DNA from: an uncultured Spirochaetaceae bacterium
GTDB lineage: Bacteria; Spirochaetota; Spirochaetia; DSM-27196; PWMO01
Reading direction: 5' to 3'
Length of the DNA: 56,539 bases
NCBI GenBank assembly: GCA_964623865.1
Contig: CAZUVX010000013.1
Span: 1-56,539 of the forward strand
Within the stretch, counting starts at the first letter, position 1. Each line of letters opens with the position of its first letter. The translations under genes and the position numbers were made by a program. The notes beneath the pieces are model-generated. The model searched no databases and was not told the origin of the DNA. It worked only from the letters and a program-made list of their open reading frames with translations. Below, in pieces: positions 13,867 through 37,325 of the stretch.

Positions 13867-15381
13867 TCAGCTCTCTTCCGGCTCTTCCCACGCCTTCGCC
13901 TTCTCCACGGCGCGCCGCCATCCGCGGTAGAGGGCGTTGCGGCGCCCCGCGTCGAAGGTGGGCTCGAAGCGCCGGTCGACGTCGTAGTTTGCCAGAATAT
14001 CCTTCTTGTCCTGCCAGAACCCCACGGCCAAACCCGCCAGGTAGGCGGAGCCCCGGGCGGTCGTCTCAATGATGGTAGGTCGAACCACCGGCACGTCCAG
14101 GATGTCCGCCTGGAACTGCATGAGGAAGTCGTTGGCGCTGGCGCCACCATCGACCTTCAGCTCCTTGGTCTCAATGCCGGAGTCCTCCTCCATGCACTCC
14201 AGGACGTCCCGTGTCTGGTATGCCAGAGACTCCAGGGTGGCGCGGATGATGTGGTTCTTGTTGGCCCCTCGGGTCAATCCCACAATGGCGCCGCGCGCGT
14301 ACATGTCCCAGTAGGGTGCGCCGAGACCGGCAAAGGCGGGGACCACGTACACGCCGTTGGTGTCCTCCACCTTCCCCGCGAAGTACTCCGTGTCCGCCGC
14401 ATCCGTGATGAGATGGAGCTCATCCCGAAGCCACTGGACGGCGGCCCCGGTAACGAAGATGGCGCCCTCCAGGGCGTACTCGACAGTGTCGCCGATCCCC
14501 CAGGCCATGGTAGTCAGGAGCCCGGTCTTGGAGGATATCGGCTTGGAGCCGGTGTTCATGAGGACGAAGCTCCCGGTGCCGTAGGTGTTCTTCGCCATGC
14601 CGTGGTCGAAGCACGCCTGGCCGAAGAGCGCGGCCTGCTGATCACCGGCAGTGCCCGCCAGAGGAATCCGCGCTCCGCCGAAGGTCTTCTCGTGGGTGTA
14701 GCCGTAGACGGCACTGGAGGGGCGCACCTCCGGCATCATGCTCCGTGGCACTCCGAGGGCCTTCAGCAGCTTGTCGTCCCAGTCCAGGGTCTTGATGTTG
14801 AACATGAGCGTCCGCGATGCGTTGGAGTAGTCGGTGACGTGGACCTCGCCGCGGGTGAGGTTCCAGAGGAGCCAGGTGTCGACGGTGCCGAAGAGGAGCC
14901 TGCCCTGCTCCGCCTTCACCCGGGCGCCCTCTACGTTGTCCAGGAGCCACTTTAACTTGGTGCCGGAGAAGTAGGCGTCTATCACCAGGCCGGTGTTCTC
15001 CCGGATGTAGTCGGTCCAGCCGTCCCGACTGAGCTGATCGCATATGCCGGCGGTGCGGCGGTCCTGCCACACGACGGCGTTGTGAACGGGTTGGCCGGTC
15101 TCACGATCCCAGACGATTGTGGTCTCCCGCTGGTTGGTAATCCCGACGGCGGCTACCTGCTCCGGCCGGACCCCGGCGCGTTCGAGGACCTGCCGTGCTA
15201 CGCCGCTCTGGGTGCCCCAGATCTCCATGGGATCGTGCTCGACCCATCCCGGCCTGGGGTAGAACTGGGTGAGCTCCTGCTGCGCCGTCCCGACAATGCT
15301 GCCGCCGTGGTCGAAGAGAATGGCCCGCGAGCTTGTGGTCCCCTGATCGAAGCTCAGTACGTACGCCTTGCCGTCACTCAC
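13867..15381 (-). CDS. glpK: Glycerol kinase
   Basis: 504 aa. N-terminus [18 protein letters not shown] and FGGY-family motifs throughout, with unmistakable full-length GlpK similarity. Confidence 0.97.
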
Positions 15382-15766
15382 TGTGTCCCTCCTTGTCGTG
15401 AACGCTCAAACTCGCCAGCAGGTTCACCCCGGTCTCGGCGAAGTTCTCCAGGATTACCTGACCTCTTCGGATGGGCACCGGGATGTCCAGCTCGTACACT
15501 CGCCTCAAGAGCTCGTCGATGTGCTCCTTCGGCAGGGGAGCGTCGGTCCGAACCGGCACCCGGGGAAAGTCATCCGACGTCGTCCGGGCGGTAGCGGTAA
15601 CCACACGTTTCGGTGCGAAGTACTCCTCCCGGGCGTACTCCTTCCCCCGGGGACAGCGGTTGCCCTTGACCACCAGGTCGTCGTTCTCATCCGTGTAGAG
15701 GGTGAGCTCGCAGCCGATCGGGCAGCTTATGCACACCATCTCTCGAAGCTTCGTCAACTCACTCAT
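15374..15766 (-). CDS. DUF1667 domain protein (third subunit of the three-gene glycerol-3-phosphate dehydrogenase module)
   Basis: 130 aa with the Cys motif [11 protein letters not shown]...GNRCPRG. Overlaps both neighbours. This is the arrangement known next to glpK in Thermotogae and Thermococcales. Confidence 0.8.
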
Positions 15767-17019
15767 TGCACGCTCACCTCCATGACGGAGTTGGCGGTGA
15801 ACCGCACCTTCTCCAGGTCCTTCGTTCGCAGCTTGACGCTGATCATCTCGGAGGGTTGCACGTGGTTCTTCTTGATCGAGCGCACCGGGACGTTATCAAT
15901 GGAGATATTGACCCGCGCGTTGTTCTTCACCACGAGGGACCGCATGTAGAGCTTGTCCGGTGCATCCGGATCGAACTGCGCGGGATTCACGTACTTGATG
16001 TTGGCGCCGGCGCGAATCTGCACCTGCCGCTTCGGACGCTTCCGCAGGAGATAGTCCGCGGCGTGTCCGCCGGTGCGCCGCGACTCCTCGGAGACGTAGT
16101 CAACCAAGTCGTGCACGTGCAGCACGTTCCCACAGGAGAAGATGCCGTCGACGCTGGTCATCATGGTCGAGTCCACCAGGGGTCCGCCGGTTTGCGGATT
16201 CAGCTCCACCCCCGCCGACTTGGAAAGCTCGTTTTCCGGAATCAGCCCGACCGACAGGAGGACCGTGTCACAGGCGATCTCGAACGACTGATCCGTGTCG
16301 GGAATGCCGTTCTCCAGCGGCGTGACCCGGACCCCCTCGACGCGCTCCTTGCCGTGGATCTCCGAGACGACGTGACTCAGGTATAGGGGGATCTGAAAAT
16401 CATTGAGACACTGGACGATGTTTCTGGTCAGGCCGGATGGATAGGGCTGGATCTCTACGACGGCGTGAACCTTCGCCCCGACCCAGGTCATTCGCCGCGC
16501 CATTATGAGGCCAATGTCGCCCGACCCGACCACGACGACGTCCTTTCCGGGGATGTACCCTTCAATGTTGACCAACCGCTGGGCAAGACCGGCGGTGTAG
16601 ACCCCGGCGGGTCTGGTACCGGGGATCCGGATGTTCCCCCGGTTGCGCTCCCGACACCCCATGGCCAGGATGACGGCCCGGGCGGAGATCCTCACCACTC
16701 CGTTGAGGGAGGAGAAGCACGCCGCCTCCTTCTGATCACCGTTGTCGGTGAGCTCTATCACGGTCGTGCTCAGAAAGACGTCGATTCCGGCGTCGCGAAC
16801 CTGGTCAATGAACTCCTCGGCGTACTCGGGCCCGGTGAACTCCTTCTTGAACTCCTGCAGACCGAAGCCGTTGTGGATGCACTGCAGGAGAATGCCCCCG
16901 AGACTCCCCTCCCGCTCCACGATCACCGGGGTGAATCCGCGACGGTGCACTTCCATGGCGGCGGCCATTCCCGCGGCCCCACCTCCGATTACCAGTACGT
17001 CGTATTCCAACTCCGTCAT
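15763..17019 (-). CDS. FAD/NAD(P)-binding pyridine nucleotide-disulfide oxidoreductase (NADH-oxidase-like subunit)
   Basis: ATG at 17019 overlaps the upstream stop (ATGA). Two dinucleotide folds (DVLVIGGGAAGMAAA and VVVVGSGDIG). Confidence 0.85.
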   Translation of the reverse strand: MTELEYDVLVIGGGAAGMAAAMEVHRRGFTPVIVEREGSLGGILLQCIHNGFGLQEFKKEFTGPEYAEEFIDQVRDAGIDVFLSTTVIELTDNGDQKEAACFSSLNGVVRISARAVILAMGCRERNRGNIRIPGTRPAGVYTAGLAQRLVNIEGYIPGKDVVVVGSGDIGLIMARRMTWVGAKVHAVVEIQPYPSGLTRNIVQCLNDFQIPLYLSHVVSEIHGKERVEGVRVTPLENGIPDTDQSFEIACDTVLLSVGLIPENELSKSAGVELNPQTGGPLVDSTMMTSVDGIFSCGNVLHVHDLVDYVSEESRRTGGHAADYLLRKRPKRQVQIRAGANIKYVNPAQFDPDAPDKLYMRSLVVKNNARVNISIDNVPVRSIKKNHVQPSEMISVKLRTKDLEKVRFTANSVMEVSVQ

Positions 17020-35923: not shown

Positions 35924-35951
35924 GTGCAAAGCCTCGTTGCGGTCGGACCCG

Positions 35952-37325
35952 CTACCGCCACCCGATCCGCAACTGCCGCGCCAGCTTCTGCAGCAGTCCA
36001 CGATGGTGCCCCTGCACGACACACATATGGTGCGGCATGCCGGCGTGGAGCATCTCCTCGAACCACTCGTTCACATCGACTTCGGTGATTTCCGCGAGAC
36101 CGTTCGTAGCCATGATGTGACGCTTGGGCGTGACGGTGCGGCCCTCGAGGGCGGTCATGTGGTAGAAGCCGTCGGTACGCCACATTCGGAAAATGGTGAC
36201 GGGCATGTCCGCCTTGATAGTGGCTTCCACCACTGCGGGGAGCCGGTTATTGAATTGAACGCCAATGTGCGGGCCGAGCTCCGTCCCCACAGGCTCGCAG
36301 AGCTCGAAGGGTGCCGCCCCGGTATGCCAGATGCCTATGTGCCTCGCGTCATGCTCGAGCCAGTCCGACAGGTAGACCGGACCAATTCCCAGGTCCTCCG
36401 CAATGAGACTGCACAGGGCGCCGTCGACATCTCCCTCCATGGCGATCGCCTTCCCCTCGGAGACGTGCCGTGCGAGGGCCAGGTAGGGCCACTGCTTCAT
36501 GACCGTGGGGAGGTCCGGCCAGTCCCGGAACGCGAGGGCCGAGGAGGCCTCGTTGGTGAGATACTCCTGCATGGCAAGGTAGTACCGCGCCTGTAGAGGC
36601 AGCGCGGATTCGTCGGCATCCCGGTAGGGCAAGCCCAGGGACTCGAAGGCCGAGACCTCGGCGGCGACGGCATCATCCTTCTGGTTCTCTACCCGGCCGA
36701 GAAACTCCTGGACGCTCTCGTGGTAGAGCTGGACTCCGAGCTCGTCATTGAGATCAATGGGGTCGGCGTGGAAGTCCACGAAGCCGGGAGCGTGATACCC
36801 GACCAGCGCCACTTTGCCGCGGCGCAGGTCCGTTGCCGCAACGACCAGGCGGACCGCCTCTTCCAGACGGCCGCGTACCGCCGAGTCGCCGGGATCGCCG
36901 TAGACGAACTCGAAGGGGCGGTTGAGATGGCGCAGCGTTGCCGCCATGACGTGGGTACCGACCAGGGAGTTCGCGCTGATCATGGAACCCTCCTCCTTCT
37001 CCGGCGTCGCCCAGAGAACGAGGGGGCGGTTCCACACCTGCGCGAGCACCGGCGCCAGGCGACCGTCACTGATGGTCGGTTGCGTCACCACGACGGTGTC
37101 GACGCCGGCAGCCTCACACTCCGCGAGAGCCGCCCGCACGCCGGCGTCGTCGGCAATGTTGTCGGAAGGGATGGTCACCCCGAAGGGCGCCTCCCCCGCG
37201 TACGCCCGAAGACGCTTCTTGATCTCGGCGCCCCAGTCGGGGTCGAAGCCGGGCCGCTTCCTGCCGAGGAGGAGCAGTCCGACTCGTCGAGTTGTCAGGT
37301 TGTCACTGTGCTCTCCGGTTGCCAT
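35952..37325 (-). CDS. L-fucose/L-arabinose isomerase family protein (candidate sulfosugar aldose-ketose isomerase)
   Basis: 457 aa. N-terminal Rossmann-like domain and a C-terminal domain with AMEGDVDGAL and GIWHTGAAP segments resembling the metal-binding regions of FucI/AraA-like isomerases. Operonic with the TauE gene. Confidence 0.7.
   Translation of the reverse strand: MATGEHSDNLTTRRVGLLLLGRKRPGFDPDWGAEIKKRLRAYAGEAPFGVTIPSDNIADDAGVRAALAECEAAGVDTVVVTQPTISDGRLAPVLAQVWNRPLVLWATPEKEEGSMISANSLVGTHVMAATLRHLNRPFEFVYGDPGDSAVRGRLEEAVRLVVAATDLRRGKVALVGYHAPGFVDFHADPIDLNDELGVQLYHESVQEFLGRVENQKDDAVAAEVSAFESLGLPYRDADESALPLQARYYLAMQEYLTNEASSALAFRDWPDLPTVMKQWPYLALARHVSEGKAIAMEGDVDGALCSLIAEDLGIGPVYLSDWLEHDARHIGIWHTGAAPFELCEPVGTELGPHIGVQFNNRLPAVVEATIKADMPVTIFRMWRTDGFYHMTALEGRTVTPKRHIMATNGLAEITEVDVNEWFEEMLHAGMPHHMCVVQGHHRGLLQKLARQLRIGWR

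Follow-up and report, generated by a model that had tools for sequence, protein, structure and literature searches.

Bioinformatics has revealed, in Thermotogae and in Chloroflexi, 'extended' gene clusters of the sulfo-transaldolase (sulfo-TAL) type for the plant sulfosugar sulfoquinovose (SQ) that also carry SuyAB (Wei et al. 2022, PMC9594981); the relevant passage of that review credits them to Liu 2020. Clusters of the sft type were noted in Spirochaetes, and glycerol kinase and G3P dehydrogenase are co-encoded with sft clusters (Frommeyer 2020, PMC7491151). The published sulfo-TK variant comprises a split transketolase, RpiB, an acylating aldehyde dehydrogenase (ALDH) and an ADP-forming CoA ligase. 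According to reviews, sulfoglycolysis yields the S-enantiomer of sulfolactate, and SuyAB takes the R-enantiomer. LarAH group 5 is 100% associated with COG2721 (Desguin 2020, Table S1). Its tested member has a malate Km of 55 mM and 'may not' use malate natively (Desguin 2020).

The locus described here lies in a 56,539-nt stretch of DNA from an uncultured Spirochaetaceae bacterium, referred to as the window. Judged by homology and conserved gene context, it is likely to encode complete catabolism of sulfoquinovosyl-glycerol and SQ in one high-GC spirochaete. Very probably an SQ/SQ-glycerol locus of the transaldolase type, combined with sulfolactate desulfonation and glycerol catabolism. Each role in this scheme has a candidate gene, and these genes occur together in independent lineages. 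The sulfosugar assignment and the identity of SuyAB are the best-supported parts; we infer the transaldolase substrate and the racemase role of LarA.

Organization of the locus

Sixteen tightly packed genes run in one direction on the minus strand; next to them, the transaldolase and ALDH genes form a divergent pair, and the TauE and isomerase genes a pair convergent on it (Table 1). All genes named in the preliminary description were found at the positions given there. Most junctions in the chain, on inspection of start codons and RBS, are overlaps of 1–11 nt or gaps of ≤22 nt; the GPH and GlpA-like genes overlap by 11 nt, and the DUF1667, Pyr_redox_2 and GlpA-like genes by 4 nt. Gaps of 114 and 97 nt separate ROK from SBP and SBP from permease. 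The 97-nt gap folds as RNA at −55 kcal/mol (z = −4.1 versus shuffles); no T-run follows its 12-bp hairpin, and the terminator scan gave no match there. The convergent gap between ALDH and TauE folds at −105 kcal/mol (z = −5.4). In the divergent region, two sigma-70-like plus-strand matches (32743–32790) do not exceed chance for the region. The glycerol kinase start is preceded by an AAGGAGG RBS; the ALDH gene begins 9 nt past the transaldolase gene. The TauE gene probably starts near 35940, as homologs align from about residue 29. Core synteny is preserved in related Spirochaetaceae MAGs (85–96% amino acid identity) and in more distant spirochaetes (50–75%); the arrangement is therefore not a chance juxtaposition.

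Table 1. Features of the locus, in order of position in the window.
Feature	Position	Strand	Match or remark
Glycerol kinase (FGGY)	13867–15381	−	Pfam FGGY_N 281 bits, FGGY_C 160 bits
DUF1667 protein	15374–15766	−	Pfam
Pyr_redox_2 flavoprotein	15763–17019	−	Pfam
GlpA-like subunit, DAO + BFD [2Fe-2S]	17016–18449	−	Pfam
GPH/MFS_2 transporter	18439–20058	−	Pfam MFS_2 286 bits; candidate importer of SQ or its glycosides, in a YihO-like role
YihQ-family GH31 glycosidase	20055–22142	−	NCBIfam PRK10426 (YihQ)
Gfo/Idh/MocA oxidoreductase	22139–23374	−	Pfam, NCBIfam
Amidohydro_2-like metal hydrolase	23371–24570	−	Pfam, NCBIfam
NagB-like deaminase/isomerase	24572–25435	−	NCBIfam; no Pfam match
ABC permease	25453–~26310	−	Pfam BPD_transp_1
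ABC permease	26321–27229	−	Pfam BPD_transp_1
GC hairpin, perfect, 12 bp	27257–27284	−	Within gap after SBP gene
Solute-binding protein (SBP)	27327–28598	−	Pfam SBP_bac_1
ROK-family regulator, N-terminal winged HTH	28713–29933	−	Pfam ROK 134 bits, HTH_24
LarA, nickel-pincer (NPN) 2-hydroxyacid racemase superfamily	29933–31279	−	NCBIfam NF052595 (LarAH5)
SuyB-like large subunit	31302–32453	−	Pfam GD_AH_second, GD_AH_C
SuyA-like small SAF-domain subunit	32453–32749	−	98-aa ORF; homologs match Pfam SAF
Divergent intergenic (promoter) region	32750–32947		198-nt gap between suyA and transaldolase gene
Type-3B transaldolase, 'clade A'	32948–33592	+	TIGR00875 304 bits
GabD/SSADH-type ALDH	33602–35035	+	Pfam Aldedh 552 bits
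Convergent terminator region	35036–35176		ALDH-TauE gap, two long GC hairpins
TauE/SafE-family anion exporter	35177–36022 (longest ORF)	−	Pfam TauE 98 bits versus 32.6
FucI/AraA-like sugar isomerase	35952–37325	−	Pfam Fucose_iso_C

Sulfosugar uptake, hydrolysis and isomerization

In Spirochaeta africana, the isomerase, SBP, both permeases, the ROK regulator, the GPH transporter and TauE all have homologs in a cluster with the sulfo-TK gene set listed above. Other spirochaetes also have the isomerase, ABC importer, ROK, GPH and TauE in their clusters of the sulfo-TK and sulfo-TAL types. The two permeases and SBP form an ABC importer of the CUT1 type that lacks an ATPase of its own, a candidate importer of SQ-glycerol or SQ. 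Spirochaeta africana, Salinispira and others carry SBP homologs (51–61%) in their sulfo-TK clusters; a search among solved structures detected no relation to SmoF. The GPH transporter shares 23–28% identity with E. coli YihO; its homologs (58–75%) adjoin GH31 genes at three loci, and one closes the sulfo-TK locus of Spirochaeta africana. ROK homologs (35–48%) are found in spirochaete sulfo-TK and sulfo-TAL clusters.

The GH31 enzyme passes the YihQ equivalog model (861 bits versus a cut-off of 553) and scores 678 bits against the YihQ structure PDB 5aed, in keeping with its earlier description as YihQ-type. Both catalytic Asp (D405 and D472 equivalents) and the W304 and Y508 equivalents are retained, but in the Arg-Trp-Tyr triad that binds the sulfonate, Gln replaces YihQ Arg301 ('SFGRQLMWNW'), and a search for a basic residue that could compensate found none. 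GH31 homologs of the Gln type occur in sulfo-TK and SftT-type sulfo-TAL clusters. The enzyme is a candidate sulfoquinovosidase, a variant with Gln in place of Arg301. Genes for glycerol kinase and the GlpA-like subunit recur beside YihQ-like GH31 genes at four loci. The kinase is proposed to phosphorylate glycerol freed from SQ-glycerol, and the DUF1667, Pyr_redox_2 and GlpA-like proteins appear to form a three-gene G3P dehydrogenase set, probably of the 'anaerobic' type.

The isomerase, earlier named as the SQ isomerase candidate, has homologs (54–62%) in the sulfo-TK cluster of Spirochaeta africana as well as in clade-A TAL-ALDH clusters, but by score it is just a distant SftI relative (about 155 bits against NCBIfam NF048012, far under the cut-off of 700). 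It is proposed to convert SQ to sulfofructose, as a distant relative of SftI/SqvD. TauE homologs (43–87%) occupy the matching position at four loci; TauE is a candidate exporter of sulfite or sulfonate.

Cleavage, oxidation and desulfonation

The SuyAB-like pair of the preliminary description is upheld by its two-subunit architecture and by SuyB identities of 58–61% to the Paracoccus versutus and Cupriavidus pinatubonensis proteins, falling to ≤39% for the next UxaA paralogs. The loci compared are suyR-A-B-Z-like in P. versutus (suyAB-sulfate-exporter) and hpsN-hpsO-...-suyAB in C. pinatubonensis; JGI names close SuyB homologs sulfolactate sulfo-lyase beta subunit. SuyAB as (2R)-sulfolactate sulfo-lyase is among the best-supported assignments.

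LarA scores 533 bits (versus 462) against the LarAH5 model, "malate racemase". It has equivalents of catalytic R75, H108, H174, K184, H200 and K298 and the 'EPHQ' and 'GPHK' signatures. LarA is probably an (S)- to (R)-sulfolactate racemase because, in 34 of the 80 genomes with its closest homologs, SuyB (≥50% identity) lies ≤10 kb away, mostly <2 kb; a transaldolase is nearby in 29. These homologs span Chloroflexota, Spirochaetota, Verrucomicrobiota, Planctomycetota and Actinomycetota. At one locus in Planctomycetota, the place that LarA takes elsewhere is filled by a ComC-family Ldh_2 dehydrogenase. Two points count against a sulfolactate role: LarA requires the NPN cofactor, but larB, larC and larE were not found within the window, and the LarAH5 family name refers to malate racemization.

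The transaldolase stands as a sulfofructose (SF) transaldolase candidate by its sulfonate context, but not as an ortholog of the characterised enzyme: its nearest structure is Thermotoga maritima TAL (PDB 1vpx, 263 bits), with BmSF-TAL at 158 bits, and it lacks the Arg30/Trp135 signature. Its own signature is NPTH..GRLD..AAVR; clade A is marked by Asn-Pro-x-His and Ala167, and His31 and Ala167 are residues of the characterised-type SF-TAL clade. An NJ tree nests clade A among the canonical TALs and separates it from the SftT clade. Sulfonate-pathway neighbours were found at 18 of 23 clade-A loci versus none of 55 canonical TAL loci, and an adjacent ALDH at 14 versus none (Fisher p = 8e-10, uncorrected for phylogeny); these ALDHs are 56–94% identical. 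Neither the island nor the flank genes scanned include a transketolase, an SF kinase or an SFP aldolase. A C3 sulfonate is required by SuyAB, LarA and ALDH, which leaves the transaldolase as the sole candidate for the cleavage. We propose that it cleaves sulfofructose and is not of the SftT/SqvA type. It could instead act on sugar phosphates: canonical phosphate-binding Arg135 is retained, and mean identity is 56% to housekeeping TALs versus 39% to the SftT type.

The ALDH scores 481 bits against E. coli GabD and 443 bits against RlGabD (8c54), a characterised sulfolactaldehyde (SLA) dehydrogenase. Proposed as an SLA dehydrogenase; it is possibly a succinate-semialdehyde dehydrogenase, the two being alike in sequence.

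Accessory genes and alternative routes

The gene between amidohydrolase and permeases is corrected to NagB/glucosamine-6-P-deaminase-like; its protein retains the MDEY and GxGxxGHxAFNEP catalytic motifs. NagB-like, amidohydrolase and Gfo genes are conserved accessories outside the proposed pathway steps. The trio adjoins the same ABC importer in two sulfo-TK and four sulfo-TAL clusters, and in a Pirellulaceae MAG the clade-A transaldolase gene is followed by NagB-like and Amidohydro_2 genes. Because the NagB-like and amidohydrolase genes preserve catalytic motifs of the deaminase type, the island may have a second substrate or a different one. An oxidative, sulfo-ED-like route through the Gfo/Idh/MocA enzyme, the amidohydrolase and the UxaA-family dehydratase, raised earlier as an alternative, is a weak one: the trio accompanies the importer in sulfo-TK clusters that have no UxaA gene, the UxaA pair is found with LarA and the transaldolase where the trio is absent, and no KDPG-type aldolase is present.

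Proposed pathway

In the transaldolase-type pathway, SQ-glycerol or SQ would enter by the CUT1 ABC importer, the GPH symporter or both. YihQ-family GH31 would release SQ and glycerol from the glycoside; glycerol kinase and the three-subunit G3P dehydrogenase would convert glycerol to DHAP/GAP, GAP being the acceptor required by the transaldolase. SQ would be isomerized to 6-deoxy-6-sulfofructose by the FucI-like enzyme. The transaldolase would then pass carbons C1–C3 of SF to GAP, so that fructose-6-phosphate and (S)-sulfolactaldehyde are formed; the adjacent GabD-type dehydrogenase would oxidize the latter to (S)-sulfolactate. Inversion at C2 by the nickel-pincer-cofactor racemase LarA would give (R)-sulfolactate, cleaved by SuyAB to pyruvate and sulfite. 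Sulfite would leave through TauE, and the ROK protein would regulate the whole gene set. All six SQ carbons would be used, and sulfur released as sulfite.

Comparison with known systems

The claim of novelty in the preliminary description is right only in part: sulfo-TAL and SuyAB in one locus had already been reported (PMC9594981). What looks new is the LarAH5-type LarA, the transaldolase clade outside SftT/SqvA, the Gln-for-Arg301 GH31 and the conserved NagB-like/amidohydrolase/Gfo trio. The nickel racemase LarA could mend the known stereochemical mismatch between sulfoglycolysis (S) and SuyAB (R).

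Organisation and boundaries of the island

The gene anatomy of the preliminary description, a 16-gene co-directional chain with a divergent transaldolase (TAL) and aldehyde dehydrogenase (ALDH), was borne out by an ORF listing and by Pfam and NCBIfam scans. G + C content of the window is about 63%. With starts that have good ribosome-binding sites, neighbouring genes mostly overlap by 1-11 nt or lie no more than 22 nt apart. Exceptions are the 114 nt before the binding-protein gene and the 97 nt after it, the latter containing a perfect 12-bp GC hairpin. The convergent gap of 141 nt between the ALDH and TauE genes is filled by two very stable GC hairpins (-105 kcal/mol, z = -5.4), which likely form a bidirectional terminator. 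Promoter and terminator scans gave match counts at chance level. Genes on both flanks are unrelated to the island, so its boundaries as first drawn are reasonable.

The OpuA-type transporter genes, which share the strand of glpK and lie 48 nt downstream of it, probably form an operon of their own for osmoprotectant uptake. Its ATPase is the only ABC ATPase found near the sugar importer, which has none. The Bat-like operon is unrelated to the island.

Features of the probable sulfoquinovose island and its flanks
Feature	Position	Strand	Content
OpuA-type betaine transporter	9695-13818	-	OpuAC binding protein, two permeases, ATPase with CBS domain
Island	about 13867-37325
Chain of 16 genes	32749 to 13867	-	SuyA-like, SuyB-like, LarA, ROK regulator, solute-binding protein, two ABC permeases, NagB-like, Amidohydro_2-like, Gfo/Idh/MocA, GH31, GPH, GlpA-like DAO+BFD, Pyr_redox_2, DUF1667, glycerol kinase
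Accessory trio (part of the chain)	22139-25435	-	NagB-like, Amidohydro_2-like, Gfo/Idh/MocA
TAL	32948-33592	+	diverges from the chain with ALDH
ALDH (GabD-type)	33602-35035	+	adjacent to TAL
Convergent ALDH/TauE gap	35036-35176		two GC hairpins
TauE and FucI-like isomerase			converge on TAL and ALDH
Subtilase	above 37422
Bat-like operon	45543-52094		BatD/TPR protein, two VWA proteins, DUF58 protein

Assignment to sulfosugar metabolism and distribution

The island is assigned with high confidence to sulfosugar metabolism. The main evidence that it handles sulfoquinovose (SQ) is the recurrent company of its genes with sulfo-transketolase (sulfo-TK) and sulfo-transaldolase (sulfo-TAL) genes in homologous loci of other genomes and MAGs (L-numbers). 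Nearest relatives are uncultured Spirochaetaceae MAGs, with 85-96% amino-acid identity and identical gene order. Remoter spirochaetes (50-75% identity) have the same modules in varying order. In the Spirochaeta africana cluster, the isomerase (54-59%), binding protein, permeases, ROK regulator and TauE all have homologs, and the edge of the locus holds the start of a GPH homolog. Further genes of that cluster are those for a split transketolase, for RpiB, for an acylating ALDH and for an ADP-forming CoA ligase, the published gene set of the sulfo-TK variant reported for Spirochaetes. In an Alkalispirochaeta MAG, the importer, NagB-like protein, amidohydrolase, TAL-ALDH pair and isomerase occupy one locus, and sulfo-TK genes lie about 10 kb off.

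In the Alkalispirochaeta locus L005 (1-1613), genes for GH4 (NAD/Mn-dependent glycosidase) and an APH-like kinase stand where the window has GH31 and Gfo/Idh/MocA; GH4 may be an alternative means of opening SQ glycosides.

Among the 33 solved-structure matches of the binding protein at E ≤ 1e-5, none carried a SmoF or SQGro-binding name. Its best structure matches are generic CUT1 sugar-binding proteins, with about 57 bits.

Glycosidase

The GH31 protein scores 861 bits against the YihQ equivalog model NF007746 (PRK10426; cut-off 553) and aligns end to end with solved sulfoquinovosidases (PDB 5aed, 678 bits; 8r56, 684; 5ohs, 554). Entry 5ohs, annotated 'alpha-glucosidase yihQ', is taken to be the Agrobacterium enzyme. 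In YihQ, the nucleophile and acid/base are Asp405 and Asp472 (E. coli numbering), and the sulfonate-binding triad is Arg301-Trp304-Tyr508. The catalytic Asp motifs 'GWMADFGE' and 'WAGDQ' are kept in the alignment. The triad is incomplete: Trp and Tyr are kept, and Arg301 is replaced by Gln, window residue 306 ('SFGRQLMWNW' vs 'SFGKRVMWNW').

An alignment was made of the best 150 of the 50%-identity cluster representatives, those longer than 1,300 residues being left out. Sequences with Gln (Q-type) outnumber those with Arg (R-type) at this position among the aligned representatives, 77 vs 42. The sole site co-varying with Gln/Arg301 is Thr/Gly at window position 373; a compensating basic residue was not found in Q-type members of this set. 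Q-type genes are located inside sulfo-TK clusters (L012, L016, L033) and sulfo-TAL clusters (L013, L014, L076, L085), and the subfamily is also represented in L009, L035 and L070. Q-type proteins are probably sulfoquinovosidases with an altered sulfonate pocket; a shifted specificity is possible. Surveys of sulfoquinovosidases based on the Arg-Trp-Tyr motif would miss them.

Transaldolase, aldehyde dehydrogenase and isomerase

The window TAL scores 158 bits to BmSF-TAL (8bc3) vs 263 bits to the Thermotoga maritima transaldolase (PDB 1vpx), and 304 bits against TIGR00875 (cut-off 246). By sequence, this enzyme and the characterised sulfofructose (SF) transaldolase are not orthologs. The TAL/FSA Schiff-base Lys and the catalytic residues Asp6, Glu60, Asn108 and Thr110 are all present.

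The BmSF-TAL sequence was reached through a Chloroflexota-type cluster transaldolase as a bridge, and 107 enzymes were then compared. SftT-type TALs, all 26 of them in SQ clusters, have the signature NP(R/K/N)H ... GW-K-E ... AAxR. Canonical TALs (55 loci and the Thermotoga and Thermoplasma enzymes) have NP(S/T)L ... GR-(L/I)-D ... ASxR. The window TAL belongs with 22 relatives to a third group, clade A (23 loci, 63-96% identity; Spirochaetota, Planctomycetota, Verrucomicrobiota, Acidobacteriota), with NP(T/S/A)H ... GR-L-D ... AA(V/I)R. It has NPTH ... GRLD instead of the SftT/SqvA signature Asn-Pro-(Arg/Lys/Asn)-His ... Gly-Trp135-Lys-Glu. The canonical residue Arg135 is retained throughout clade A. 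His31 and Ala167 occur in 23/23 clade-A loci, His31 also in all SftT-type enzymes and Ala167 in nearly all of them; the 55 canonical loci have Leu31/Ser167, save one with Ile31. Ser167 is the equivalent of the phosphate-binding Ser226 in E. coli TalB, and Arg30/Trp135 of BmSF-TAL are presumed to have pocket roles. In a neighbour-joining tree, clade A is nearly monophyletic, nested in canonical TALs and outside the monophyletic SftT clade. Mean identity of the window TAL to SftT-type enzymes is 39%.

A GabD-type ALDH adjoins TAL in 14 of the 23 clade-A loci vs none of the 55 canonical loci (Fisher p = 8e-10, uncorrected for shared ancestry). For a sulfonate-pathway neighbour of some kind, the counts are 18/23 vs 0/55 (Fisher p = 2e-13, likewise uncorrected for shared ancestry). 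The isomerase is found near clade-A TAL in the window and in L001, L002, L091, L094, L095, L101, L178, L181 and L228. Transketolase, SF kinase and SFP aldolase were not detected in the island or among the scanned flank genes. Since none of these was found there and the downstream enzymes need a C3 sulfonate, the window TAL probably cleaves sulfofructose.

Against RlGabD the window ALDH scores 443 bits, and against E. coli GabD 481 bits. Its proposed sulfonate-binding Arg pair is common to SSADH, and no sequence feature is known to separate the two enzymes; by gene context, it is a candidate sulfolactaldehyde (SLA) dehydrogenase.

The isomerase scores 154.6 bits against NF048012 (SftI), below the cut-off of 700, and is 22-28% identical to SftI-like genes of Firmicutes clusters. 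It is a lineage separate from SftI/SqvD that is found in the same gene contexts. On the Planctomycetes contig L004 (10001-20263), an isomerase homolog (51% identity) is located near genes for an EamA transporter, DUF3604 and GHL10. About 6 kb downstream of it are a PFL-like glycyl radical enzyme and then a 246-aa gene without a family on record, possibly its activase. This homolog may be linked to radical C-S cleavage.

Probable sulfolactate sulfo-lyase

Tandem ORFs of 98 and 383 aa with overlapping stop and start codons encode small SAF-like and large GD_AH subunits, the architecture of SuyA/SuyB. A tblastn search of plasmids places the large subunit at 58-61% identity to a tight protein group, and other UxaA-family proteins reach at most 39%; this drop is taken as orthology to SuyB. 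The group includes a Paracoccus versutus locus with a GntR regulator, two UxaA-family genes (suyA-suyB) and a sulfate-exporter-family gene, and a Cupriavidus pinatubonensis locus with hpsN, hpsO, ..., and two UxaA-family genes (suyAB). Both arrangements have been published, as suyRABZ-type and hps-suyAB; the SuyAB enzymes characterised in print are those of the sister strains P. pantotrophus NKNCYSA and C. pinatubonensis JMP134. The JGI automatic name of close SuyB homologs agrees with this assignment. The pair is very likely SuyAB, a candidate (2R)-sulfolactate sulfo-lyase that would split (R)-sulfolactate into pyruvate and sulfite in an Fe(II)-dependent reaction.

In a further group of loci (L190, L196, L197, L202, L204-L206, L208, L216, L217, L220, L226, L236, L240), LarA has as neighbours a SuyA-like small subunit (54-62% identity) and a large UxaA subunit whose identity to the window SuyB is only 34-36%. 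LarAH5-type racemases may here be partnered by another lyase or dehydratase.

Candidate sulfolactate racemase

LarA scores 533 bits against the LarAH5 'malate racemase' equivalog of NCBIfam (cut-off 462). His108, His174, the NPN-tethering Lys184, Arg75, His200 and Lys298 are all aligned ('TRPVP', 'ATGTH', 'EPHQFMGYSGGVK', 'NHA', 'QAQK'). The group-5 signature, Gln after the catalytic His, is present, and 'GPHK' is invariant in LarA alignment A2.

Sulfoglycolysis yields (S)-sulfolactate and SuyAB accepts the (R)-form; proteobacteria bridge this mismatch with the dehydrogenase pair SlcC/ComC. LarAH group 5 is 100% associated with COG2721, the COG of UxaA/SuyAB (Desguin et al. 2020). For the tested member, Mar1 of Desulfitobacterium hafniense, the Km is 55 mM with L-malate, which is perhaps not the enzyme's natural substrate (Desguin et al. 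2020). The neighbourhood of LarA was sampled in the 80 species-level genomes with its closest homologs (44-86% identity). A SuyB ortholog (at least 50% identity) is located within 10 kb of LarA in 34 of the 80, usually within 2 kb, and a transaldolase is near LarA in 29. Neighbourhood taxa are Chloroflexota, Spirochaetota, Verrucomicrobiota, Planctomycetota and Actinomycetota. In a Planctomycetota MAG (L099, 7812-14808), the order is GntR, clade-A TAL, AP_endonuc_2, ALDH, SuyAB and Ldh_2 (ComC family); Ldh_2, the known sulfolactate-inverting dehydrogenase type, occupies the place that LarA has in other loci.

Because of the stereochemical mismatch, the data on the tested member and the SuyB and TAL neighbourhood, sulfolactate is proposed as the substrate, and LarA is somewhat more probably than otherwise a sulfolactate racemase. 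The nickel-pincer (NPN) enzyme would couple (S)-sulfolactate from sulfoglycolysis to the (R)-specific SuyAB. In the searchable literature, no paper was found that connects sulfolactate to LarA, to lactate racemase or to the nickel-pincer cofactor. The genes larB, larC and larE for NPN cofactor biosynthesis were not detected among ORFs of the 56.5-kb window.

In Chloroflexota-type clusters with SuyAB, LarA and SftT-type TAL (L006, L008, L180, L185, L188, L189, L193, L199, L200, L207, L211, L213, L244, L250), an aldehyde:ferredoxin oxidoreductase (AFOR) stands beside or replaces ALDH, and PF03601 (SuyZ-like 'sulfate exporter family') occurs instead of TauE. The presence of AFOR suggests ferredoxin-linked oxidation of sulfolactaldehyde in anaerobes.

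Accessory trio

The trio genes come after those of the ABC importer. An N-terminal HxH motif is present in the Amidohydro_2-like protein. In the NagB-like protein, catalytic motifs typical of true glucosamine-6-phosphate deaminases are conserved, as are basic anion-site residues; the phosphate loop of this protein is shortened. Sulfo-TK clusters (L016, L087) and clade-A sulfo-TAL clusters (L093, L098, L178, L181) have the trio, and L096 and L101 are also among loci noted for trio genes. Its conservation as an accessory of SQ clusters in spirochaetes holds for transketolase and transaldolase back ends alike. It may supply a second path to sulfofructose, starting from a modified sulfosugar, or an alternative isomerase.

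The Gfo/Idh/MocA protein was considered as an NAD-dependent sulfoquinovosidase of the GH188/SqgA type; none of its solved-structure matches at E ≤ 1e-10 is so named. GH188 clusters are reported without GH31. At fold level, such an identity is possible.

Alternative explanations

The main substrate could be other than SQ, or not SQ only: the Q-type GH31, NagB-like protein and amidohydrolase would convert a related 6-anionic sugar (e.g. a hexose of the amino- or N-acyl-6-sulfo type, or another glycoside) to a 6-sulfo-ketose, which TAL would cleave. The exchange of Arg301 for Gln with co-varying Thr373 speaks for this, as do the equivalents of Asp72, His143 and Glu148 of true deaminases in the NagB-like protein, next to its basic anion-site residues. 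So does a Pirellulaceae MAG in which NagB-like and Amidohydro_2 genes come directly after the clade-A TAL; neither a YihQ-type GH31 nor an SftI-like isomerase was found there by tblastn over the 19-kb locus and Pfam search of about 15 kb. It is nevertheless unlikely, given that Q-type genes belong to otherwise standard sulfo-TK and SftT-type sulfo-TAL clusters, that an SQ-isomerase homolog lies within the island, that the trio also occurs with an R-type GH31 (L087), and that a literature search for natural amino-sulfonosugars gave only sulfate esters. It is quite improbable, too, that TAL is an ordinary pentose-phosphate enzyme that rebalances sugar phosphates, with SF cleaved elsewhere (e.g. 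by a sulfo-TK transketolase) and ALDH, LarA and SuyAB serving to take up and use C3 sulfonates from outside (sulfolactate, DHPS). Arg135 and all of the canonical catalytic residues are indeed kept, the closest solved relative is 1vpx, and the TAL-ALDH pair of the Alkalispirochaeta MAG (L005/L101) is about 10 kb from sulfo-TK genes. However, no transketolase was found in the island, in the scanned flank genes or in the TAL-ALDH(-SuyAB-LarA) loci L014, L017, L178, L181 and L228; His31/Ala167 and ALDH adjacency cleanly separate clade A from the 55 housekeeping TALs; and the C2 sulfonates from sulfo-TK are unusable by SuyAB. Cleavage of SF by TAL is therefore preferred.

The sulfo-Entner-Doudoroff-like route offered as a second reading in the preliminary description is rejected as highly improbable. 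Gfo/Idh/MocA would oxidise SQ, the amidohydrolase or NagB/Pgl-like protein would open the lactone, the UxaA pair would dehydrate sulfogluconate, and an aldolase would release SLA. Gfo-family sugar 1-dehydrogenases and Amidohydro_2 lactonases do exist, and sugar-acid dehydratases are among UxaA-family enzymes. Yet the UxaA pair is the SuyAB ortholog, the trio is separable from it (the two occur independently), which argues against this route, and the NagB-like motifs are those of a deaminase rather than of a 6-phosphogluconolactonase. None of the families to which the characterised sulfo-ED enzymes belong gave a match in the island (SDR for the SQ dehydrogenase, SMP30 for the lactonase, IlvD/Edd for the dehydratase, KDPG-type for the aldolase). 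Equally remote is a non-sulfonate locus, with alpha-glucoside and glycerol utilisation beside a D/L-malate or tartrate module (LarA malate racemase and UxaA-type dehydratase). The NCBIfam names ('alpha-glucosidase' for GH31, 'malate racemase' for LarA) and the GH31 without Arg301 are consistent with it. 'Alpha-glucosidase', however, is an old name that the YihQ model still carries; there is good support for orthology to SuyB; TauE is in the island; the genes repeatedly co-occur with sulfo-TK and sulfo-TAL sets; and the LarAH5 Km for malate is high. Sulfosugar catabolism with desulfonation remains the preferred reading.

Implications

In current reviews, SQ mineralisation is a division of labour between sugar-splitting and separate desulfonating bacteria. 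The island and dozens of related loci in Spirochaetota, Chloroflexota, Planctomycetota and Verrucomicrobiota point to widespread single-organism mineralisation in uncultured anaerobes and aquatic bacteria. The link to LarA gives an orphan nickel enzyme family, acknowledged to be in want of a native substrate, a concrete and cheap test. It also provides a new marker gene, and a single enzyme would solve the S/R mismatch upstream of SuyAB. With the variant TAL and the Gln-type GH31, surveys by SftT/SqvA identity cut-off or by Arg-Trp-Tyr probably undercount SQ degraders. The chances are about even for a wider proposal: that LarAH5-type LarA proteins ('malate racemases') are nickel-pincer sulfolactate racemases, working in spirochaetes, planctomycetes and verrucomicrobia alongside a second SF-transaldolase lineage, recruited independently (Arg135; His31/Ala167), and a Gln-variant sulfoquinovosidase. 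If this holds, motif- or identity-based surveys miss both that lineage and the glycosidase variant.

Comparison with known systems

The combination of sulfo-TAL and SuyAB was first presented as undescribed. The idea is already in the literature: an 'extended' sulfo-TAL pathway with SuyAB in one cluster, with full use of SQ carbon and release of sulfite, has been proposed on bioinformatic grounds in Thermotogae and Chloroflexi (Liu et al. 2020 BBRC, cited in Wei et al. 2022, PMC9594981). As in that proposal, sulfoquinovosidase, SQ isomerase, transaldolase, SLA oxidation and SuyAB are combined in one locus; the same combination was found in Chloroflexota-type contigs (L006, L008) and many L17x-L25x loci. 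The island differs in a TAL of another clade, a Gln-variant GH31, an isomerase remote from SftI and a spirochaete host. A LarA racemase step is not mentioned in the available text of Wei et al. 2022 (PMC9594981) on extended sulfo-TAL.

The sulfo-TAL (sulfo-SFT) pathway of Bacillus aryabhattai SOS1 and B. megaterium DSM 1804 (SftG/I/T/D/E; SqvA/D, SlaB) shares the conversion of SQ to SF, to SLA and F6P, and to sulfolactate (SL). GH31 and a TauE-family exporter are also shared, and some clusters have glycerol kinase and G3P dehydrogenase as well. Occurrence of the latter two genes within sft clusters has been reported, as have sft clusters of single spirochaete genomes (Frommeyer 2020). In Bacillus, sulfolactate is excreted; the Bacillus TAL has Arg30/Trp135 and is about 39% identical to the window enzyme, and the SlaB-type ALDHs are just 32-36% identical to the window ALDH. 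SftX (DUF4867) is absent from the window.

As with SlcC/ComC and SuyAB of Chromohalobacter salexigens and Paracoccus, (S)-sulfolactate has to be converted to the (R)-form acceptable to SuyAB. Unlike that system, a single LarA/NPN racemase with cofactor-bound hydride would replace two NAD(P)-dependent dehydrogenases and a free sulfopyruvate intermediate. Mar1 of D. hafniense shares the NCBIfam family, catalytic residues and group-5 Gln signature with the window LarA. Its assays covered carboxylic hydroxyacids only, and a sulfolactate assay was not found in searchable papers.

The spirochaete sulfo-TK variant (SqwGH, SqwI, SqwD, SqwKL; e.g. Spirochaeta africana) shares the solute-binding protein and permeases, FucI-like isomerase, ROK regulator, GPH, TauE, Q-type GH31 and, in some loci, the trio. 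It differs in its transketolase back end, which leads to C2 sulfonates (sulfoacetate), and is without the transaldolase-ALDH-SuyAB-LarA set. New in the island are a candidate sulfolactate racemase, a second transaldolase lineage, a Gln-type glycosidase and the accessory trio.
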